Origin: an uncultured Clostridia bacterium
GTDB taxonomy: Bacteria; Bacillota; Clostridia; Christensenellales; UBA1242
Direction of reading: 5' to 3'
NCBI GenBank assembly: GCA_934747805.1
Contig: CAKVHC010000003.1
Coordinates: forward strand, 64,402 to 128,401
Length of the DNA stretch: 64,000 nucleotides
Shown here: piece by piece, positions 19,021 through 51,779 of the stretch
Position numbering within the stretch: position 1 is the stretch's first letter
How the letters are laid out: each line of letters begins with the position of its first letter
Made by a program: the position numbers and the translations under genes
Notes under the pieces: model-generated
The model's input: only the letters and a program-made list of their open reading frames with translations
What the model was told of the DNA's origin: nothing
The model's database searches: none

Positions 19021-19095
19021 TGGCTGGGGTAGCTGGATTCGAACCAGCGGATGACGGATTCAGAGACCGTAGCCTTACCACTTGGCGATACCCCA
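19021..19095 (-). tRNA. tRNA-Gln (anticodon CTG)
   Basis: Hand-folded cloverleaf: UGGGGUA acceptor, anticodon loop CTCTGAA, T-loop TTCGAAT, encoded CCA. Confidence 0.85.
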
Positions 19096-33505: not shown

Positions 33506-33582
33506 TGGGGTGGATACAAGGACTCGAACCTTGGACAACCAGATCCACAATCTGGCGCTCTACCAACTGAACTATATCCACC
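33506..33582 (-). tRNA. tRNA-His (anticodon GTG)
   Basis: Encoded G-1, acceptor GTGGATA, anticodon loop TTGTGGA, discriminator C, CCA. Confidence 0.9.
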
Positions 33583-33586
33583 ATAC

Positions 33587-33663
33587 TGGTGTGCTCGGGG
33601 GGATTCGAACCCTCGACCCTCGCCTTAGAAGGGCGATGCTCTATCCAACTGAGCTACGAGCAC
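33587..33663 (-). tRNA. tRNA-Arg (anticodon TCT)
   Basis: Acceptor GTGCTCG/CGAGCAC, anticodon loop CTTCTAA, T-loop TTCGAAT, CCA. Confidence 0.85.
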
Positions 33664-33722
33664 ATATTAATTTGTTTTATGAGCCTGTATTTGTTTGCAC
33701 ACATTACAAATATACTTATTGT

Positions 33723-33741
33723 GGAGCGGGTGATGGGAATA
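33723..33741 (-). repeat. Isolated copy of the last 19 nt of tRNA-Gly(UCC)
   Basis: Identical to 33855-33873 (TGGAGCGGGTGATGGGAAT). It starts at the same T-loop position as the tRNA-His fragment. Confidence 0.8.
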
Positions 33742-33854
33742 ATAATCTGACGATTATTGGCTTCGCACGAACTTTGTCCGCTTCAAACGACTGTCGTCGT
33801 TTTGTTGCTAACGCAACTCCATCACCTTGCAAAGCAAAGCAGAAATACAAACTA

Positions 33855-33928
33855 TGGAGCGGGTGATGGGAATCGGACCCACGCAGCCAGCTTGGAAGGC
33901 TGGAACTCTACCATTGAGCTACACCCGC
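33855..33928 (-). tRNA. tRNA-Gly (anticodon TCC) with non-canonical T-loop TCCGATT
   Basis: Acceptor GCGGGTG/CACCCGC, anticodon loop CTTCCAA, CCA. Position 55 is C instead of the near-invariant U. Confidence 0.8.
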
Positions 33929-34593: not shown

Positions 34594-36591
34594 TCAATCC
34601 GTCAGATAAAACGTGCAAGTTGAAAGCTTTTTGCGTTTTAGTTTGAGCACCTTGCCGCTTTGCGTCTCAAAGTAATAGTCCTTGTTGTATGGGCATTTTC
34701 CGCAATTTGCGTTAAGGTCGTTTTTCATAGGGCAGTGGCGGAGCGTCATATATGGGAACGGCGTCTTATTTATGAAGCAATCTTCACTGCACATCACCGG
34801 TAGACTGAGCAAGTTTGCAGTGTATTTGTTAAACACGTTCATGCCGCCACCAATCACTTTTTCGCATTTGAAATCTAGTGCGTACATATTGTTCACAATG
34901 ACCGCAATGTCGTTTTTCTCGACCAATTTTTTAAGATACGCCACATCGGCATCCAGTGCAAAATTCGGCAGATTAAGATAAAGTTTTTTGCCAAAACATT
35001 TGCACATTTCTTTCAAACTTGTGATCTCATTCTCATCATATATTTCAGGCGAGTAAATAACGTTCTTCGCAGGAGTTAAGCTAGGATTTTCTTCAAAGAT
35101 TTCAAAGTCGCTGAATATTTCGTATTTTAAATCCGTGTCAATTTTTAAATGCGGAAGGTTATGTTTATATTTCTCTTTAACTGCATCCAAAAGGACAGAG
35201 TAAAACACCCTTCTAAATTCGTTTAGTTTGCTCTTTTGAATGAACACGCCGTCAGTTTTGAACTCAATTTCAGGTGAGAAATACTCGTTTCTCTCAAAGT
35301 TGGCTTGTAATTCATCTTTGGATAAAGCTTGCGATTTTGCCTTGTCCAGCACGTCTCCAGTTAGTGTGACGTTGTAGAAATCTGTGCAAGCAGTAAGTCT
35401 TTTGCCTGCGAACGCTTCGATTGTAATTAGTATCGGCTTTTTGTGGACATAAGACAGGATTTCACTTTCCAATTCGGCGTCGGTTATTAGGTTGACCGAG
35501 TCGCCTTTTCTGGCTGGCTGTGTGGTGGTGACTAAGTATGTTTTATCTGCATTTTGTTTAAGGTCAAACAAGGCAATTGTGCTGATTTCCTTTTCTCCGT
35601 CAAAAATCTTGATAGACGACTTCGCACTCAGTGGGCGAGTCGAAGTGAACATTATCTCGTTGAACCTTTTACCTTTCTTCACATTCACCACTTCGCCAAT
35701 GCGACTGCCGATGTGGTTGTTGAATTTTGAAATGATGCTTCCGTTTCCGTCAAAATAACCAGCCGTAAATCCACGATTGAACGCAAGCTCCAAGTTTTTC
35801 TGATTTGCGGTCAGCCCGTCTACAGCCTTTCTATATTCCATTGTTGCCGTCGCCACATAAAAAGGTCGTCTAGCTCGCCCCTCAATTTTTAGTACGTCAA
35901 CGCCAGCGTATTCAAGTTTTGGTAGGGTGGTGGACATATTGAAGTCCTTTGCGCTTAATAGATAGCCCTCTGCCAGCGTCTTGCCCTGATTTTTGAGTTT
36001 GTATGGCAGGCGACAAAGCTGTTTGCATCTTCCACGATTTCCGCTAGCATCATACAAATACGAACTCAAATAGCAGTTGCCCGAGAAGCAAACACAGAGT
36101 GCCCCTTGTGCGAAATATTCAATCTCAACGCCTGCATTTTCCTTTATGTTCTTGATTTCTTCTAGCGGAGTCTCTCGTGCCAGAACCACTCTTTTGAAAC
36201 CAAACTTTTTCGCATTCAACACGCCTTCAAGATTGTGAAGCCCCAACTGTGTGCTGGCGTGCAACTCAATCTCAGGATAGTTAGTGTGCAGAATGTGCGC
36301 TAGCCCAAGGTCTTGAATAATGAAACAATCCACACCAAAATTGAAAGCGTCAATCACAAGGTTGACTGCGTCTTCGAGTTCGTCGTCGCGAAAAAGAATA
36401 TTCACCGCCAGATTGACCTTCACGCCGTGAATGTGCGCAAAACACACGACTTCGTCCAAGTCGTCCAGCGTAAATCCCTCGATATTGTTGCGTGCATTAA
36501 AATTGCTGATGCCCAAATACACTTCGTCCGCGCCATAATACACTGCCATTTTTAAGCTCTCAAAATTTCCAACAGGAGATAATATTTTCAT
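34594..36591 (-). CDS. Peptidase U32 family protein, long form (with C-terminal extension)
   Basis: MKILSPVGNFESLKMAVYYGADEVYLG, ARE..L, and the U32 Cys cluster region CVCFSGNCYLSSY...GNRGRCKQLCR. Confidence 0.8.
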   Translation of the reverse strand: MKILSPVGNFESLKMAVYYGADEVYLGISNFNARNNIEGFTLDDLDEVVCFAHIHGVKVNLAVNILFRDDELEDAVNLVIDAFNFGVDCFIIQDLGLAHILHTNYPEIELHASTQLGLHNLEGVLNAKKFGFKRVVLARETPLEEIKNIKENAGVEIEYFAQGALCVCFSGNCYLSSYLYDASGNRGRCKQLCRLPYKLKNQGKTLAEGYLLSAKDFNMSTTLPKLEYAGVDVLKIEGRARRPFYVATATMEYRKAVDGLTANQKNLELAFNRGFTAGYFDGNGSIISKFNNHIGSRIGEVVNVKKGKRFNEIMFTSTRPLSAKSSIKIFDGEKEISTIALFDLKQNADKTYLVTTTQPARKGDSVNLITDAELESEILSYVHKKPILITIEAFAGKRLTACTDFYNVTLTGDVLDKAKSQALSKDELQANFERNEYFSPEIEFKTDGVFIQKSKLNEFRRVFYSVLLDAVKEKYKHNLPHLKIDTDLKYEIFSDFEIFEENPSLTPAKNVIYSPEIYDENEITSLKEMCKCFGKKLYLNLPNFALDADVAYLKKLVEKNDIAVIVNNMYALDFKCEKVIGGGMNVFNKYTANLLSLPVMCSEDCFINKTPFPYMTLRHCPMKNDLNANCGKCPYNKDYYFETQSGKVLKLKRKKLSTCTFYLTD

Positions 36592-39152: not shown

Positions 39153-39240
39153 TGGTGCCGATGGTCGGACTCGAACCGACATGGAGTTTGCACCCCGAAG
39201 GATTTTAAGTCCTTTGCGTCTGCCATTTCGCCACATCGGC
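39153..39240 (-). tRNA. tRNA-Leu (anticodon TAA)
   Basis: Acceptor GCCGATG/CATCGGC, anticodon loop CTTAAAA, long variable arm, CCA. Confidence 0.9.
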
Positions 39241-39245
39241 TCATT

Positions 39246-39320
39246 TGGAGGCACCACCCAGACTCGAACTGGGGAATAAGGGTTTTGCAGACCCTTGCCT
39301 TACCACTTGGCGATGGTGCC
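39246..39320 (-). tRNA. tRNA-Cys (anticodon GCA)
   Basis: Acceptor GGCACCA, anticodon loop CTGCAAA, discriminator U, CCA. Confidence 0.9.
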
Positions 39321-39368
39321 AGACAATAATTTATATGCACGTACAAAGTTTTCTGTTATATAAAAAAA

Positions 39369-39443
39369 TGGAGCGGAAGACGAGATTCGAACTCGCGACA
39401 TTTACCTTGGCAAGGTAACGCTCTACCACTGAGCCACTCCCGC
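39369..39443 (-). tRNA. tRNA-Gly (anticodon GCC)
   Basis: Acceptor GCGGGAG, anticodon loop TTGCCAA, canonical T-loop TTCGAAT, CCA. Confidence 0.9.
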
Positions 39444-39450
39444 ATAATAT

Positions 39451-39526
39451 TGGTGGGAACTATAGGGATCGAACCTATGACAATCTGCTTGTAAGGCAGG
39501 CGCTCTCCCAGCTGAGCTAAGCTCCC
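39451..39526 (-). tRNA. tRNA-Val (anticodon TAC)
   Basis: Acceptor GGGAGCT, anticodon loop CTTACAA, T-loop TTCGATC, CCA. Confidence 0.85.
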
Positions 39527-40885: not shown

Positions 40886-40960
40886 TGGGGTATCGCCAAG
40901 CGGTAAGGCACTAGACTTTGACTCTAGTATCCGCTGGTTCGAATCCAGCTACCCCAGCCA
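40886..40960 (+). tRNA. tRNA-Gln (anticodon TTG)
   Basis: UGGGGUA acceptor, anticodon loop CTTTGAC, T-loop TTCGAAT, CCA. Confidence 0.9.
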
Positions 40961-42462: not shown

Positions 42463-42538
42463 GGACCATTAGCTCAGTTGGTAGAGCACGCGACTCTTAA
42501 TCGTGTTGTCCGGAGTTCGAGTCTCCGATGGTCCACCA
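42463..42538 (+). tRNA. tRNA-Lys (anticodon CTT)
   Basis: Acceptor GGACCAT/ATGGTCC, anticodon loop CTCTTAA, T-loop TTCGAGT, CCA. Confidence 0.9.
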
Positions 42539-45267: not shown

Positions 45268-46470
45268 ATGGAACTATTAGCCCCAGCAGGCGATATGCAG
45301 AAACTCAAAATGGCATTGGCATTCGGTGCAGATGCCGTATATTTTGCCAGCAAAAAATTTGGTCTTCGCACCTTTGCAGGCAATTTTGAAGAACCAGAAC
45401 TCAAGACTGCTATTGACCTTGTGCACTCAAAGGGTAAACGTGCATATGTCACGGTCAATGTCTTTCCTAGAGATAAAGATATTCCTGAGATTGTGGCGTA
45501 TTGCAAACGACTATACGATATGCACGCCGATGCAATAATCGTTGCTGATCTTGGCGTGTTTAGTGCCGTTAGACGTGAAGTTCCAGACCTTGAGACGCAT
45601 ATCAGTACACAAGCCAACGTGGTTAATAGCGAAACAGCCAATTTGTATTATAAAATGGGAGCCAAACGAATAGTATTGGCACGAGAACTAACACTTGAAC
45701 AGATTAAAGAAATCCGTGACAACACGCCACCAGACCTAGAGCTTGAAGCTTTTGTGCATGGTGCAATGTGCATAAGTTATTCAGGCAGATGTCTTCTCAG
45801 CAATTTCTTCACGTCACGTGATGCTAACGCCGGCAGTTGCGTGCAGGCGTGCAGGTGGTGTTATGAACTCCGTGAGGTTAGTCGTGAAAACACCAATCCG
45901 ATTGAAGAGGATTCGCATGGCTCATACATACTTAACTCATACGACATTTGTATGATAGAATATATAGACAAACTTGCACAGGCAGGTGTCACCAGCCTAA
46001 AAATCGAGGGCAGAATGAAAAGCGAATATTACGTGGCAAATGTGGTGAATGCATATCGCCACGCACTCGACCTTTATTATGCTGACCCAGACAATTACAA
46101 ATGTCCACAAGTTCTGCTCGACGAACTCGACAAAAGTTCACACAGAGGATATAGCACTGGTTTCTATCTTGGCGGACAGGGTAAAATTGACTTAAACAGC
46201 AGCGTTCAAACTGCCACCTGCAACTTTGTCGGACTTGTTTTGGAAGATAGTCATGACAAAAAAGCACGTGTGCAAATGCGTAATAGATTCTATTTAAACG
46301 ATGAATTGGAGATTTTATCACCTTATTCGCTTGGCAAAACTTTGAAAATGACTAAAATAATAGACGACAAGGGTAATGAAATAGACGATGTGAAGGTTGT
46401 TATGCAAGAAGTGGAAATATACACTGACCAACCTTTGCATAAGAACGATATTTTAAGGAAAAAGATATGA
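45268..46470 (+). CDS. Peptidase U32 family protein (TrhP/YrrO-like)
   Basis: MELLAPAGDMQKLKMALAFGADAVYFA, ARELTLEQI, CISYSGRCLLSNF...GSCVQACRW. Confidence 0.85.
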   Translation: MELLAPAGDMQKLKMALAFGADAVYFASKKFGLRTFAGNFEEPELKTAIDLVHSKGKRAYVTVNVFPRDKDIPEIVAYCKRLYDMHADAIIVADLGVFSAVRREVPDLETHISTQANVVNSETANLYYKMGAKRIVLARELTLEQIKEIRDNTPPDLELEAFVHGAMCISYSGRCLLSNFFTSRDANAGSCVQACRWCYELREVSRENTNPIEEDSHGSYILNSYDICMIEYIDKLAQAGVTSLKIEGRMKSEYYVANVVNAYRHALDLYYADPDNYKCPQVLLDELDKSSHRGYSTGFYLGGQGKIDLNSSVQTATCNFVGLVLEDSHDKKARVQMRNRFYLNDELEILSPYSLGKTLKMTKIIDDKGNEIDDVKVVMQEVEIYTDQPLHKNDILRKKI

Positions 46471-47397: not shown

Positions 47398-47403
47398 ATT
47401 TGT

Positions 47404-47734
47404 GCGTGAACAGATGGTCGCTGGGCAGTGATGAGAGCTGCCGAGAGGAAAGTCCGGGCTTCATAGAGCAGGGTGCTGGCTAACTACCAGTGGAGGCGAC
47501 TTTAAGGAAAGTGCAACAGAAAATTACCGCACGCAAGTGTAAGGTTGAAAAGGCGAGGTAAGAGCTCACCGCACACTAGGTGACTAGAGTGGCAATGTAA
47601 ACCCCACCCGAAGCAAGATTAAGCAAGGTCTAAGGTTGCTCGCCAGACCTTCAAAAGTATCGCTTGACCGTATTGGCAACAATGCGGCTAGATAGATGAC
47701 CATCAAATACAGAACTCGGCTTATAGTTCACCGC
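47404..47734 (+). ncRNA. rnpB: RNase P RNA
   Basis: Universally conserved GAGGAAAGTCCGGGC (47446-) and ACAGAACTCGGCTTAT (47709-). P1 pairs GTGAAC (47406) with GTTCAC (47726). Confidence 0.9.
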
Positions 47735-47757
47735 AACAGTCCTCGGACTGTTTTTTT
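47735..47757 (+). terminator. rnpB terminator
   Basis: ACAGTC-CTCG-GACTGT followed by TTTTTTT. Confidence 0.7.
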
Positions 47758-47777: not shown

Positions 47778-47806
47778 TTGACAAAACAATTTTTCAGTAT
47801 TATTAT
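47778..47806 (+). promoter_or_regulatory. Sigma-A promoter of the four-gene operon
   Basis: TTGACA 47778-47783, a 17-nt spacer, TATTAT 47801-47806. Confidence 0.6.
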
Positions 47807-47827
47807 TTGGAGTAATTGGAGAAAACA

Positions 47828-48559
47828 ATGAAAAACAAGTCCGTTGTATTTTCAATAATTACACTAGTCATCTCTATTATTTGCACCTGTGTCACACTGG
47901 GTGCAATTTTTGTATTAGATAGTAAGTTGGATTCAGCAAATTGTGAGGAGAACATCTATAACGAATCATTAAGCAGTGTAGTAGAACTGAAAGCAGTCAC
48001 TAATTCAATAGGTGAAAGTTATGGGTCAGCCTTTTTTGTGAGCGAAAGCGGACATCTTGTTACAAACGCGCACGTTGTAACATTCAATAGAAGTGGACAG
48101 ATTATCGCATTTGATGAGTTTTATATAAGATTTGCTTTTGAAGATATATATAGACCTGCAACTTTAATAAAGTTTGACAGCACGATTGATATAGCCTATC
48201 TAAAATTAGACGAGGTTAACTGCGAATTTAAAAAAGTGGTGATTGGAAATTCTGATAAAATCAAAACTGGACAAAAAATCTACGCTATAGGCAATTTAAA
48301 TAAGGTTGGACTATCAATTACGCAGGGTAGTATCTCGAATGCGAATATAATTGTAGAGTACAACAATATAGATAGAAGTGTTATACAATGCGACCTTACA
48401 ATTGCAGAAGGCAATAGCGGCGGAGTTTTACTAGATAATAAAGGTCGAGTAATTGGTGTGACAACTTTTAGGTTAAAAGACACTTCAAATAATGTTATTT
48501 ATGGAATCTCGTATTGTGTGCCAATTAACACAGTATTGGATTATATAAAAGAGAAATAG
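47828..48559 (+). CDS. Membrane-anchored trypsin-like serine protease (S1 family)
   Basis: N-terminal TM, then TNAHVV (His), DIAYLKL (Asp) and GNSGGVLLD (Ser) catalytic-triad contexts. Confidence 0.75.
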   Translation: MKNKSVVFSIITLVISIICTCVTLGAIFVLDSKLDSANCEENIYNESLSSVVELKAVTNSIGESYGSAFFVSESGHLVTNAHVVTFNRSGQIIAFDEFYIRFAFEDIYRPATLIKFDSTIDIAYLKLDEVNCEFKKVVIGNSDKIKTGQKIYAIGNLNKVGLSITQGSISNANIIVEYNNIDRSVIQCDLTIAEGNSGGVLLDNKGRVIGVTTFRLKDTSNNVIYGISYCVPINTVLDYIKEK

Positions 48560-48567
48560 GAGGATGT

Positions 48568-49812
48568 ATGAAAACAAGACGAATGAAAAATGCGTTTAGT
48601 TTATTATTGGTGCTGGTAGTACTACTTATTCCGTGTTTTATGTCTTTCGGACAATCAAAAAATGTTAACTACTATACACCAAGAACAACTAGAGTTAGCG
48701 TTTCATCTCAATCAATAGACTGTGAAAGTATTTTCAATGAATTCCAGAATGCTAATTTACAGACTATTGATGACAAAACAACATTTGAAGGAACTAAAAC
48801 CTTCAATCTAATGGACTTTGCGGAATTAGACAATCTAAGCGATACAGATGTAGTTGCAGAAGCCAATATACAAGTAAAATATAGGTTTAGTTATGAAAAA
48901 GAAACAAACTTGGTGACTTTATCTGCATATACGATGGGCGATGACGGAGAAGTGCTGGTTGATACATTAATTGGCGCCGCGTTTGTTAATGAAAATGGAG
49001 ACTTGGATGCCCTACTCGACTGTGGCGAACAAGACTATATGTTGTTAAGCGATATGCAAGATTTAGGTATGATCGAAAATTGCGGCTGGTTCAAAAAAAT
49101 GTTTAATAAAGTTGCAAAGACTATCAAAAAAGTAATTTCAACAACTATCGGTGTGATTGGCGCAATCGCTACAGTTGCATTGCCAGTTGTATGTGGTGTA
49201 GTTATGGCTGCAACAGGCGTAGGATTGCTTGCTACTATTGCGGTCGGAGCAACAGTAGGTGCGGTTACAGCCGGAGCGACTGCCGCTGCCTCTACATATC
49301 AACAAGATGGAAAAGTAGATTGGGAAGCAGTTGGTATTTGTGCAGGAGTAGGTGCAGCAGTAGGTGCAGTTGCTTCAGCAACATCTTATGAAATTACAAA
49401 ACTACTATCTAGTATGCCAAAAGGAAGAATTTTCCAGGTAGCATTTGCAGTTGGTTCAAATCCACTAGTGATAACGCCTATTAAACTTACCTATCTGGAA
49501 GCACTTAGTGTTCTAACGTTATTTGCTGTAAAATTTGCAAATGAGTGTAATGGTCTAGGAATACCACTAATCTCAAAGAATCTATTCACGCAAGATATGA
49601 TTTCAGTGTTTAATACATTGACACAGAATCAAGTTTCACAAAAAAGAATAGGAGTCTATACTCCTTTGCAAACCAATGCTAGAGCCCTGGCTGTATTGTT
49701 GTGTAGAGATATTGTTCCAACATATGATTTGGCTCATTCTGCAGGATTTTATAATCACTATCACGATGAGAACCATTTGATACACGTATGGTTTGGAAGT
49801 CCAATTATTTAG
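48568..49812 (+). CDS. Secreted hypothetical protein with Gly/Ala-zipper membrane region and His-rich C-terminal motif
   Basis: Signal peptide. Residues ~195-270 are G/A/V-rich (GVIGAIATVALPVVCGVVMAATGVGLLATIAVGATVGAVTAGATAAA...GVGAAVGAVASA). The C-terminus reads AHSAGFYNHYHDENHLIHVWFG. Confidence 0.5.
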   Translation: MKTRRMKNAFSLLLVLVVLLIPCFMSFGQSKNVNYYTPRTTRVSVSSQSIDCESIFNEFQNANLQTIDDKTTFEGTKTFNLMDFAELDNLSDTDVVAEANIQVKYRFSYEKETNLVTLSAYTMGDDGEVLVDTLIGAAFVNENGDLDALLDCGEQDYMLLSDMQDLGMIENCGWFKKMFNKVAKTIKKVISTTIGVIGAIATVALPVVCGVVMAATGVGLLATIAVGATVGAVTAGATAAASTYQQDGKVDWEAVGICAGVGAAVGAVASATSYEITKLLSSMPKGRIFQVAFAVGSNPLVITPIKLTYLEALSVLTLFAVKFANECNGLGIPLISKNLFTQDMISVFNTLTQNQVSQKRIGVYTPLQTNARALAVLLCRDIVPTYDLAHSAGFYNHYHDENHLIHVWFGSPII

Positions 49813-49821
49813 TGAGTAAAT

Positions 49822-50403
49822 ATGAATATAGAAAATATAGTTAATAACATCAAGCAAAAATATAGTAGGTATGAAGTTGACGTCACGAATTTTGGTGGCG
49901 TGCATATTTTAGACCTAAACCAAGGCGGGAAATTGTATTGTAGAGTGAATTTGCGAAAGATAGACCAGCAAGTTAGAACCGATTTCTCGTGTGTATATGA
50001 TGACAAATATGTAGATGTTCAATGCGAAAATGACTTACAACATTTATTCTCCACTATCGACGAAGAAATTGCAGATATGACCGCCTATTATGCCGTAGAA
50101 CAAGACAAAAAGTCGCTTTGCAAAAGACTTGACGAACTAAACAAGCAGATTACGTCAACCTTGCGTAAAAATAAAGTGAGTGCTCACACCACGCACAACC
50201 TAGATAATTGCGTAATGGGGCATATAGATAGCACGGATGTAAAAAACAAAATTGCATATAGACTCCTACACGAGCCACGAGGTTTTATTGCCAGCATATT
50301 AGACGGTGAGAATACGACCGATTACAACGCAGACACAGAGTTTAATGAATTCATTGCAGATTTGATATCTGCCATTAACAACAAAGTCAACGAGAAAAAA
50401 TGA
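49822..50403 (+). CDS. Hypothetical protein, tandem paralogue a
   Basis: 193 aa. The C-terminal GFIASILDGENTTDYNADTEFNEFIADL is shared with the next gene. Confidence 0.5.
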   Translation: MNIENIVNNIKQKYSRYEVDVTNFGGVHILDLNQGGKLYCRVNLRKIDQQVRTDFSCVYDDKYVDVQCENDLQHLFSTIDEEIADMTAYYAVEQDKKSLCKRLDELNKQITSTLRKNKVSAHTTHNLDNCVMGHIDSTDVKNKIAYRLLHEPRGFIASILDGENTTDYNADTEFNEFIADLISAINNKVNEKK

Positions 50404-50969
50404 AATTAGAAGATTTAATAACTGAATTAAAAGTTCGTTATCCAGACATCGCAATAAAGCCATTTAACGAATGTCTATTTTTTGAAAGAACGGGCAAGGA
50501 CTATGATAAAATCTCATACAAGCAGATAAACGACAAGTTGGTCGTTAAAAATTATAAATATGGCAAAGACAATTATCAAACTATTGAAATTGTAAACTGC
50601 TTAGACTTGGCTAAGTTGTATCAAGTTTTGGACGCTAAATTTAAACTCTGCGACGAATATTACAACTGCCTTAAAAACGCAAAACTTGTTGAGGAAAAAT
50701 TTGCCAAGCTTAAAAACAACGTGCTGAACATTCTTGGACAAAATAACGTCGAGCAAAAAACCTTAACGAGCGGAATATGCAGTTTGGTTGAACTGACGAC
50801 CAGAAACTCGAACACAAAAATTTTGTATAGGCTAGAATGCTCAAAGGACGGCTTTATTGCCAGTATCATCGACGGTGAAGACACGACCGATTACAACGCA
50901 GACACCGAGTTTAATGAGTTTATTACAGACTTGAAAGCAAGATTGCACTACAATCTAAACGCAAAATGA
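50400..50969 (+). CDS. Hypothetical protein, tandem paralogue b
   Basis: ATGA overlap with the upstream gene. 189 aa. C-terminal GFIASIIDGEDTTDYNADTEFNEFITDL. Confidence 0.5.
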   Translation: MKLEDLITELKVRYPDIAIKPFNECLFFERTGKDYDKISYKQINDKLVVKNYKYGKDNYQTIEIVNCLDLAKLYQVLDAKFKLCDEYYNCLKNAKLVEEKFAKLKNNVLNILGQNNVEQKTLTSGICSLVELTTRNSNTKILYRLECSKDGFIASIIDGEDTTDYNADTEFNEFITDLKARLHYNLNAK

Positions 50970-50974
50970 CAATA

Positions 50975-51004
50975 AAGGAACCTTGATTCAAGGTTTCTTT
51001 TTTC
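50975..51004 (+). terminator. Terminator of the four-gene operon
   Basis: AAGGAACCTT/AAGGTTTCTT stem (10 bp, one G-U pair), a 5-nt loop and a T-run. Confidence 0.7.
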
Positions 51005-51065: not shown

Positions 51066-51094
51066 TTGCAATTTGTATTTCTATATGTTATACT
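51066..51094 (+). promoter_or_regulatory. Sigma-A-type promoter for 51127 gene
   Basis: TTGCAA 51066-51071, a 17-nt spacer, TATACT 51089-51094. Confidence 0.5.
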
Positions 51095-51126: not shown

Positions 51127-51738
51127 ATGAGTTTAGTTAGGGATATGCTCAACCGTACACAATCGTCTAGCACAAAAGGTGACGCACGTTTTTTGCGTGC
51201 AAACAATAACCCACAAACTCAGCAAAACCATCCTCGTTCACAATACGTGGCAGTCAAGGGTGGATACTTTTTAGACGGACTACGCGATGTGATGAGCATT
51301 GACGTAGTGTTCGCCGACATTACCAGCCGTGCATACGACAGACAGAACAATCAGGCATTCGAGCAATCTCTCACCACAGCAATGCGCAACAGAACCAATC
51401 TAAACGCCAACTTGCTCATCGTCTACGAGCGTCGCACTGCCAACGGCAAGTATGTCCGTTCTAGCAAGATGTTGCCTTGCCAAATTCGTCCAAGCGACAT
51501 CAGCACTGAGTCGGGCAAGGAATTGAACGACCTTTGCAGTTTCACCATTATTCGTGAAAATCGTGAAAACGAAAGCCCGAAGTTGTATTATGGTTTTGAC
51601 GATGTAAATGTTGACCATACCACATTGATTTTCGACATGAATACATACCGAACGCATACAATGCTCACGAGCGCGATAAACATGGCGAATCAAACACAGA
51701 AATATCAACGAGACTATGAAAATGGAAAAACAAAATAA
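51127..51738 (+). CDS. Hypothetical protein
   Basis: 203-aa ORF with a GGGGA RBS, its own promoter and a terminator (51737-51757). No motif recognised. Confidence 0.45.
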   Translation: MSLVRDMLNRTQSSSTKGDARFLRANNNPQTQQNHPRSQYVAVKGGYFLDGLRDVMSIDVVFADITSRAYDRQNNQAFEQSLTTAMRNRTNLNANLLIVYERRTANGKYVRSSKMLPCQIRPSDISTESGKELNDLCSFTIIRENRENESPKLYYGFDDVNVDHTTLIFDMNTYRTHTMLTSAINMANQTQKYQRDYENGKTK

Positions 51739-51779
51739 GGTCGCACGACCTTTTTTTGTGGCAAATATGGCAAATGTAG

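Follow-up and report, generated by a model that had tools for sequence, protein, structure and literature searches.

Introduction

The ABP/S8-PTS toxin systems were recognized between 2022 and 2026 and have been reported from Bacillales and Actinomycetota. Their loci encode, in this order, a stand-alone S8 protease (AbpP), a toxin with a Sec signal and a BetaH domain (AbpT) and an immunity protein located in the cytoplasm (AbpI). BetaH is an acidic seven-stranded sheet that wraps a C-terminal cationic helix with a dibasic motif, and the toxin is activated by a protease cut between the sheet and the helix (PMC9424270, PMC13556192, PMC13460014). ABP toxins are diffusible and are activated in trans in supernatants (PMC13556192), and their toxin domains are strongly cationic with a mean isoelectric point (pI) of 10.2 (bioRxiv 10.1101/2025.04.13.648598). 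The main question stated as open in this field is how the toxins cross the target membrane. Here we examined a four-gene operon-like locus at positions 47778-51004 of a 64,000-nucleotide (nt) stretch from an uncultured Clostridia bacterium (assembly GCA_934747805.1, contig CAKVHC010000003.1, positions 64,402 to 128,401), which is referred to as the window. Judged by its genes and their relatives, the locus is very probably a polymorphic toxin, protease and immunity system, with a protease encoded by gene 1, a toxin by gene 2 and candidate immunity proteins by genes 3 and 4.

Gene 2 contains a long hydrophobic module rich in glycine, for which precedents exist in other antibacterial toxins. The glycine zipper of the type VI secretion system (T6SS) DNase Tde1 is required for translocation into target cells (PMC10240207), and in the LXG toxins TelE and EsxX the C-terminal regions, which have a Gly-zipper, depolarize membranes (PMC10434224, PMC12744356). 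An original prediction, made by a model from the letters of the window and a list of its open reading frames (ORFs), had likened the four genes to bacteriocin or polymorphic-toxin loci with immunity genes. We compared this locus with its relatives and with the systems above.

Results

Constant and exchangeable regions in the gene 2 family

Homologues of gene 2 were searched for in a collection of 5.8 billion proteins, which yielded at least 102 homologous protein clusters. Only six of the 102 align with gene 2 from end to end. In most, the match covers residues 1 to ~285 and all similarity is lost beyond that point, and a minority match the N-domain alone or the C-terminal region alone. The C-termini of the family fall into at least 16 unrelated clusters, among which Pfam recognized Ntox35 (8), Colicin_D (3), Tox-REase-5 (2) and DUF4258 (2), as well as WHH, Colicin-DNase and Ntox37 with one member each. 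On the strength of these alignments, residues 1-285 form what we call a conserved trafficking scaffold and the last ~127 residues an exchangeable warhead, both functions being putative.

The genomic pattern was examined at 18 genome loci and further metagenome loci, with a scan of metagenome contigs contributing three. All 18 genome loci are from metagenome-assembled Clostridia (Christensenellales, Acutalibacteraceae, Candidatus Onthoplasma and others). Wherever upstream DNA is present (~20 loci, with the three tandem cassettes of L005 among the cases), the gene directly upstream of a full-length toxin gene encodes a protease orthologous to that of gene 1 (45-57% identity), and by this pattern gene 1 is the obligate genomic partner of the toxin. 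The complete four-gene set was found on two independent contigs, where independent gene calls recovered the same four genes; co-occurrence thus extends beyond the window genome, as the original prediction had asked of a real system. The further neighbours vary among genomes both upstream and downstream, and the cassette occupies different chromosomal sites with a patchy distribution. Because the neighbours differ, the unit consists of the protease, the toxin and the small downstream genes.

The downstream genes follow the warhead. A downstream-gene cluster was shared by 19 of 25 toxin pairs with the same C-terminal cluster versus none of the 66 pairs with different clusters; across the sampled loci, a different warhead comes with different genes immediately downstream. 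At the other family loci, the downstream genes matched no known immunity family in Pfam. Orphan modules made of a C-terminal domain and a small gene are present in the relatives L004, L005, L009, L016 and L018. In L009, L016 and L004 the conserved loop DGKVDWE.VG marks the start of such modules, and another C-terminal domain with its small gene comes after it. The window locus has no orphan C-terminal domain, its sole extra element being the gene 4 paralogue. The alternative C-termini, the invariably adjacent protease and the co-varying downstream genes, along with the reuse of the window C-terminal domain on RHS and PT-HINT proteins described below, bear out the resemblance to polymorphic-toxin loci that had been drawn from the window alone.

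Two features of the relatives concern copy number. Locus L005 (553-11625) is a toxin and immunity island of ~11 kb with three tandem protease-toxin cassettes, truncated toxin fragments and several paralogous small genes, and two of its protease copies appear identical by length, termini and identity to the window protease. Contigs L008, L014-L020, L022 and L023 end inside the toxin gene or at the Gly-zipper junction, which suggests that genomes contain several copies of the constant region and that short-read assemblies break there, as would be typical of an element that is repeated and recombines. The toxin family is probably under-counted in metagenome-assembled genomes.

Downstream genes and the sister-strain comparison

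Genes 3 and 4 had been described as cytoplasmic paralogues, and both parts of this description held: the proteins are 30% identical (E = 7e-24) and neither sequence contains a hydrophobic segment. The two genes share a near-identical stretch of ~27 residues near the C-terminus (GFIASI.DGE.TTDYNADTEFNEFI), over which 74 of 90 nt are identical. This shared tail suggests gene conversion, or it may be a 3' recombination anchor for cassette exchange.

The sister locus L024 occupies the same chromosomal site as the locus in the window. The proteases of the two are 98.8% identical and residues 1-285 of the toxins 99.3%, whereas the C-terminal domains are 64% identical. At the DNA level, the identity of 97-100% drops sharply to 42-65% at ~49437 and returns to 77-88% over the His-rich end. 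Gene 3 is absent from L024, and its single downstream gene is a gene 4 orthologue (87% identical). Because L024 combines a C-terminal domain of 64% identity with a gene 4 orthologue and no gene 3, we propose that gene 3 is probably the cognate immunity gene for the C-terminal allele in the window and that gene 4 is probably a retained immunity gene against the L024-type allele. The original prediction had spoken of duplicated small partners; the paralogy is real, but the pair is better read as one cognate immunity gene and one retained for another allele.

Two more distant loci were informative as well. In L022, the protein at the gene 3 position (20-601) is 33% identical to gene 3 and has the same final 23 residues, and it is followed by a gene 4 orthologue that is 86% identical to gene 4. 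The toxin of L021 shows 51% identity overall and 45% in the C-terminal domain, and a distant homologue of genes 3 and 4 follows (E = 4e-10).

The S1 protease encoded by gene 1

Gene 1 matches PF13365 (Trypsin_2) with E = 2.8e-24, and its catalytic residues are His82, Asp121 and Ser197, the last within GNSGG. The hydrophobicity reaches 2.68 at residues 6-24 (Kyte-Doolittle, 19-residue window), and on inspection the N-terminus resembles an uncleaved signal anchor. The triad, the N-terminal anchor and two Cys are invariant across 14 aligned orthologues. The anchored trypsin-like protease recognized in the original prediction is thus confirmed. There was no S8 match in Pfam or NCBIfam, and the protein was assigned to S1 by PF13365/PF00089. 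We predict from these properties that gene 1 encodes a membrane-tethered, toxin-processing protease.

The best NCBIfam similarity of gene 1 is to the DegP, HtrA and DegS models, and it is partial, covering the protease domain only. A similarity of this kind would fit a locus that serves housekeeping envelope biology, with an HtrA-type quality-control protease, a membrane substrate and two chaperone-like proteins. Yet the score against TIGR02037 is 107 bits against a cutoff of 416, no PDZ domain was matched in Pfam or NCBIfam, and the chain ends after the protease domain. Furthermore, the C-terminal domain of gene 2 is hypervariable between near-identical strains, the distribution is patchy and at differing chromosomal sites, and members of the family carry nuclease toxin domains. 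The polymorphism data effectively refute a housekeeping role, which we find scarcely credible. The original prediction had also named matches of genes 2-4 to known non-toxin families as a result that would speak against it, and none were found.

The protease also gave partial matches in PADLOC to RT-Protease_XI (1e-19) and PDC-M35A (4e-12). Together with the low-GC, island-like nature of the cassette, these matches would fit an intracellular conflict system for anti-phage defence or of the toxin-antitoxin type, whose protease would switch on a membrane effector when the cell is infected. The matches, however, cover only the generic S1 domain, and genes 2-4 have no significant match in PADLOC (best E = 0.067 for gene 2). 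Both the toxin and the protease carry predicted export signals, the C-terminal domain is shared with exported RHS and PT-HINT toxins, and the arrays of orphan C-terminal domains with immunity genes are typical of interbacterial toxins. The family was not found on viral contigs by a profile scan. An intracellular function is therefore considered highly improbable. A search of plasmid proteins with the C-terminal domain and the N-terminal region of the toxin gave no match.

Organization of the conserved scaffold

The signal-like N-terminus, the Gly/Ala/Val-rich region (residues 193-274) and the C-terminal His cluster that had been noted in gene 2 are all present. A lipoprotein signal (LIPC) was rejected upon sequence inspection since Pro or Val at position -1 is unfit for a lipobox. 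The predicted signal sequence is followed by a conserved acidic domain (residues 30-171, hereafter the N-domain), for which AlphaFold2 produced a model with seven strands and then a long C-terminal helix; the predicted local distance difference test (pLDDT) value is 64.8 overall and 70-85 in the core.

The NCBIfam model NF038340 (SAR2788_fam) covers the signal peptide and the BetaH region of ABP toxins. It was matched by 37 of 85 members of the toxin family (best E = 2e-5), all far below its 50-bit cutoff. With signal peptides removed, NF038340 was still matched by 11 of 30 members, and any other model by at most one. When the N-domain alignment of the family was compared with the BetaH alignment using hhalign, P was 4.7e-4 with a shared 'D.ET..VT' hairpin, and a relaxed alignment was collinear as far as the terminal KK helix. 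A remote homology of the N-domain to BetaH is likely, albeit not established. The original statement that genes 2-4 could not be assigned to any known family stands for genes 3 and 4, but not entirely for gene 2, whose N-domain is BetaH-like with these weak NF038340 matches.

The cationic helix at residues 172-192 has a hydrophobic moment of 0.68 per residue and begins with an invariant ENCGWF motif. The Gly/Ala/Val 'zipper' module behind it consists of a 51-residue segment (about two transmembrane spans), a polar loop and a 19-residue segment (one span). The loop, YQQDGKVDWEAV at residues 244-255, is the recombination junction of the orphan cassettes in the relatives. Gene 2 is predicted from these segments to have its N-terminus outside, three spans and its C-terminus inside. 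The Pfam scan of gene 2 gave no sign of RHS/YD or haemagglutinin repeats or of markers for secretion by type V, VI or VII systems. A match to phrog_342 (E = 2.6e-6) was rejected as it is confined to residues 188-277 and attributed to Gly-zipper and transmembrane composition, and other weak matches in the transmembrane region were likewise put down to the composition of the zipper.

The zipper module is conserved across the family and is its most conserved hydrophobic feature. This conservation and the depolarizing activity of the TelE and EsxX zipper regions raise the question of whether the Gly-zipper itself is the lethal part, as in a pore-forming or depolarizing bacteriocin, with the C-terminal domain in an accessory or targeting role and genes 3 and 4 protecting against membrane damage. 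We consider this improbable, since the zipper stays constant while the C-terminus is swapped among bona fide nucleases, and the downstream genes track the type of C-terminus rather than the zipper. In addition, the proteins of genes 3 and 4 are soluble without a membrane segment, which suits the neutralization of a cytoplasmic enzyme and not of a pore.

The C-terminal domain

Used as the sole query, the C-terminal domain gave no result in a word-indexed homology search, while an exhaustive profile search succeeded. With a profile built from 16 members and a threshold of E <= 1e-3, the domain was found in 293 representative proteins of 60 to 2,583 residues, invariably at the extreme C-terminus. 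All six of the longest carriers and one shorter carrier contain RHS repeats, and another contains a pretoxin-HINT (PT-HINT) domain. When 26 diverse C-terminal domains were scanned singly against Pfam, the approach by which the likeness to BetaH had come to light, no recurrent family emerged.

In the family alignments every sequence has His397 and His406, nearly every one has His399, and His390 is frequent; the subfamily to which the window domain belongs has a helical insert of ~45 residues. Structure prediction and Foldseek comparison, which had been suggested for genes 2-4 together with the original prediction, did yield models for gene 2, that of the C-terminal domain with a pLDDT of 86.9, but no significant fold match. 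The second half of the domain is modelled as beta-alpha-beta-beta-beta with the conserved His on the last strands. The pI of the domain is 7.1 with a net charge of 0, and the C-terminal domains of the family have a median pI of 8.7 and a range of 4.7-10.0. The domain is predicted to be a His-dependent, probably metal-dependent enzyme.

Foldseek returned recurrent sub-threshold matches to HPPD, GLOD4 and UcmS2 (E = 2-10, TM about 0.2), which we take to be VOC-fold proteins. Li et al. (PMC9424270) describe an ABP toxin domain, S8-VOC1, with an N-terminal extension and four conserved His, a pattern that, by description only, resembles the C-terminal domain in the window. Foldseek, Pfam and PDB profile searches gave no significant support to a link with S8-VOC1 or the VOC fold.

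A transmembrane-like segment within 90 residues before the C-terminal domain was present in 38 of 48 unrelated carriers, mostly RHS tips, versus 6 of 42 control windows. From this difference, the transmembrane helix and the C-terminal domain look like one functional unit, and the tri-histidine warhead seems to travel with its own membrane helix. Examples of carriers with this pairing are P0149, P0137, P0159 and P0213. The small secreted carriers P0219, P0122, P0129, P0242 and P0215 have a signal peptide, a different, strongly acidic N-domain (net charge -10 to -24) and often a transmembrane segment, and the related proteins P0130 and P0108 match the N-domain profile weakly. The architecture of acidic domain, transmembrane segment and warhead may define a broader superfamily.

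Locus boundaries and neighbouring genes

The promoter-like site, the terminator-like hairpin and the four tightly packed ORFs, with gaps of 8 nt between genes 1 and 2 and 9 nt between genes 2 and 3 and an ATGA overlap of genes 3 and 4, were all found where they had been predicted (Table 1). Gene 1 has an alternative TTG start at 47816 that would give a protein of 247 residues. The rnpB gene and its hairpin (47403-47752) are the upstream boundary and lie outside the toxin system. The site at 47778-47806 is plausible as the operon promoter but is not proof on its own because this region shows no enrichment of sites of this kind (22 against an expected 17.3). A terminator scanner placed the palindrome at the operon end on the minus strand. 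The GC content of the cassette is 35.9% versus 42-43% in the flanks; this low GC content and the differing chromosomal sites among genomes point to horizontal acquisition of the cassette.

Gene 5 lies downstream of the operon, directly followed by rpmF, plsX and rnc, and occupies the place where Firmicutes usually have yceD/DUF177. It has no match in Pfam, NCBIfam, PHROGs or PADLOC and is ~80% conserved beside rpmF in L022 and L024. It was rejected as a fifth component of the cassette since it has its own promoter-like site and terminator, is tied to rpmF and is missing from the cassette at the other chromosomal site in L021.

Upstream of the locus, the window contains ten tRNA genes in several clusters on both strands (19024-19095, 33509-33928, 39156-39526, 40886-40957 and 42463-42535). 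A U32-family peptidase paralogue at 35734-36591 on the minus strand is 34% identical to the U32 gene at 45268-46470 and lies ~9 kb upstream of it.

Table 1. Features of the toxin locus and its borders in window coordinates.
Feature	Position	Strand	Basis or remark
rnpB (bacterial RNase P RNA, class A)	47403-47739	+	RF00010, 274 bits, E = 1.9e-88
Terminator-like hairpin of rnpB, followed by a T-run	47735-47752	+	Sequence scan
Promoter-like site, sigma-70/SigA type, TTGACA-17-TATTAT	47778-47806	+	11 of 12 consensus positions matched
Gene 1, S1 protease, 243 residues from ATG	47828-48559	+	ORF
Gene 2, putative toxin, 414 residues	48568-49812	+	ORF
Gene 2 residues 1-29, predicted Sec-type signal sequence	48568-48654	+	Net charge +4, then hydrophobic core
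Gene 2 residues 30-171, acidic beta-sheet domain, BetaH-like	48655-49080	+	Net charge -19, pI 4.1
Gene 2 residues 172-192, cationic amphipathic helix CGWFKKMFNKVAKTIKKVIST	49081-49143	+	Net charge +6, dibasic KK pairs
Gene 2 residues 193-274, Gly/Ala/Val 'zipper' hydrophobic module	49144-49389	+	Hydropathy and segment analysis
Gene 2 residues 288-414 and stop, putative polymorphic C-terminal toxin domain	49429-49812	+	Homology to most relatives stops at ~285
Gene 3, 193 residues	49822-50403	+	ORF
Gene 4, 189 residues	50400-50969	+	ORF
Intrinsic-terminator-like hairpin AACCTTGA-TTC-AAGGTT, then T-run, operon end	50975-51004	+	Sequence reading
Gene 5, 203 residues	51127-51738	+	Own promoter-like site 51066-51094, own terminator 51737-51752

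Discussion

Proposed mechanism

The pattern of a constant scaffold, exchangeable C-termini and co-varying downstream genes makes it likely that this locus is a self-contained, Sec-dependent, protease-associated polymorphic toxin system of a gut Clostridia genome that serves interbacterial competition. We propose the following model for its action. The toxin and the protease would be exported or inserted via Sec, and the protease would remain attached to the membrane on its outer face. In the manner of AbpP and AbpT, the protease would cut the toxin near the junction of the acidic sheet and the cationic helix (around SDMQDLG/MIENCGWFKK) and uncage the helix, which could then dock the processed toxin onto a Gram-positive target membrane. 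Insertion of the Gly-zipper segments would bring the C-terminal domain into the cytoplasm of the target, a step with a precedent in Tde1 (PMC10240207) that fits the predicted topology of an outside N-terminus, three spans and an inside C-terminus. There, as a His-dependent and probably metal-dependent enzyme, the C-terminal domain would poison the target cell. In the cytoplasm of the producer, the gene 3 protein would bind and neutralize the cognate C-terminal domain, and that of gene 4 would protect against the sister-allele toxin of neighbouring strains.

ABP-like activation followed by translocation through the Gly-zipper is, for these two steps together, an analogy that we favour by a little over an even chance. 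A more specific proposal, which we advance tentatively and hold to be somewhat less probable than its opposite, is that the locus represents an undescribed class from gut Clostridia. In this class, a tethered S1 protease would uncage a BetaH-like domain, a Gly-zipper would carry interchangeable enzymes across the target membrane without a protein receptor, and the warhead would be a new tri-histidine, possibly VOC-like enzyme that is nearly always accompanied by its own transmembrane helix.

Several observations weigh against these proposals. Genes 3 and 4 gave nothing significant in Pfam, NCBIfam, PHROGs or PADLOC and match no known immunity family, and their own family is small, with 14 clusters only. 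The toxin in the window does not itself match NF038340 even at E <= 1. The hhalign probability for the N-domain and BetaH is just 33% over 32 columns, and Foldseek found no significant neighbour for the N-domain, the model of which has moderate confidence at its pLDDT of 64.8. For the C-terminal domain, there was no match in Pfam or NCBIfam, no PDB sequence match and no significant fold match. As this domain is not cationic, the electrostatic import model of ABP is not directly transferable. Moreover, given the hydrophobic module, Sec is predicted to insert the toxin into the membrane of the producing cell and to leave the C-terminal domain on the cytoplasmic side, a position from which the toxin would still have to be released.

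This last point bears on a contact-dependent or surface-tethered version of the system, in which the toxin passes to a neighbour in contact with the producer. Its zipper spans would hold it in the producer membrane, or it would sit in shed vesicles, and the protease would trim or release it locally. Three segments of transmembrane length would normally be retained by SecYEG, and the protease has a signal anchor that looks uncleaved and is conserved among 14 orthologues. RHS toxins, which are linked to contact-dependent delivery, also carry this C-terminal domain. On the other hand, gene 2 lacks a motif for cell-wall anchoring as well as any stalk or repeats that could bridge a Gram-positive wall, and ABP, its closest analogue, diffuses and undergoes activation in trans in supernatants (PMC13556192). 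We regard delivery by contact as unlikely, though less so than any of the other alternatives above.

If our reading of a secreted, protease-activated toxin is true, the family extends the principle of protease activation to strictly anaerobic gut Clostridia (Christensenellales, Acutalibacteraceae). A protease of a different clan and a large Gly-zipper hydrophobic module would amount to a different solution to two of the steps. A natural variant with a built-in membrane-insertion module in place of a cationic warhead would also offer a contrasting test system for membrane crossing. The tri-histidine warhead is new and, with its 293 representative proteins and its presence on RHS toxins, widespread. 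The compact three-part cassette is a candidate scaffold for the delivery of enzymes into Gram-positive cells and a candidate marker of strain-level antagonism in gut metagenomes.

Comparison with known systems

Gene 1 resembles HtrA/DegP proteases (S1C) in its chymotrypsin fold, its triad with GNSGG and its N-terminal anchor, which is as in Gram-positive HtrA. Unlike them, it lacks a PDZ domain and occurs in strict association with a toxin gene, and its scores fall well short of the family cutoffs.

Gene 2 shares with Tde1, TelE and EsxX the repeated GxxxG/A in hydrophobic helices of an antibacterial toxin, a resemblance that we do not put forward as homology. The Tde1 zipper serves to move a nuclease through the cytoplasmic membrane of the target, and we propose the same role for that of gene 2. 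Those proteins are delivered by the T6SS or the type VII secretion system, and in TelE and EsxX the zipper itself is the toxin. In gene 2, by contrast, the zipper is internal, constant in the family and upstream of interchangeable enzymes.

The Rhs/YD-repeat and contact-dependent inhibition (CDI) toxins likewise combine a constant delivery region with a variable C-terminal domain at a sharp junction (Zhang et al. 2012, PMC3482391). Further common features are that the cognate immunity gene follows directly downstream and that displaced modules occur as orphans, here in relatives of the toxin in the window. The window C-terminal domain itself occurs on RHS-repeat and PT-HINT proteins. However, the toxin here is small (414 residues) and has no RHS/YD or haemagglutinin repeats, and a separate, operon-encoded protease takes the place of autoproteolysis.

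The ABP systems were compared through a reference set of seven Bacillales plasmid loci with annotated S8 peptidases (L028-L034). Loci with an S8 peptidase, a 'SAR2788 family putative toxin' and a small gene are common on large plasmids of the Bacillus cereus group and Priestia (31 records); one plasmid record labelled Klebsiella grimontii (CP079755.1) looks mislabelled or contaminated. The window locus has the protease, the toxin and a small immunity gene in the same order, which was confirmed on the reference loci. Its N-domain is likewise acidic and is predicted to form a sheet of seven strands, behind which comes a cationic helix that carries a dibasic motif. The warheads overlap in Ntox35, Colicin D, the restriction-endonuclease fold and the HNH fold.

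The differences from ABP are nevertheless considerable. The protease in the window is S1 (PF13365) and apparently membrane-anchored, whereas that of ABP is S8 and freely secreted. The toxin has a Gly-zipper module of ~80 residues between the helix and the warhead, while the ABP toxins retrieved have only a short hydrophobic-then-basic helix and no zipper module. The warheads are not uniformly cationic, with a pI of 7.1 in the window and a median of 8.7 versus 10.2 for ABP, and the family is hosted by anaerobic gut Clostridia, not by Bacillales or Actinomycetota as ABP is. The relatives have cassettes in tandem and, commonly, arrays of orphan modules, and the word 'orphan' is absent from the main text of Li et al. 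2022. The ABP papers and Zhang et al. 2012 make no mention of a trypsin-like partner or a glycine zipper, and no description of an S1-protease-linked Gly-zipper toxin system was found in the open-access literature searched. The principle of polymorphic and ABP toxins is thus known, and what appears new here, from sequence comparison, is an S1-protease-linked, BetaH-like Gly-zipper toxin family with a tri-histidine warhead and a putative two-gene immunity set.

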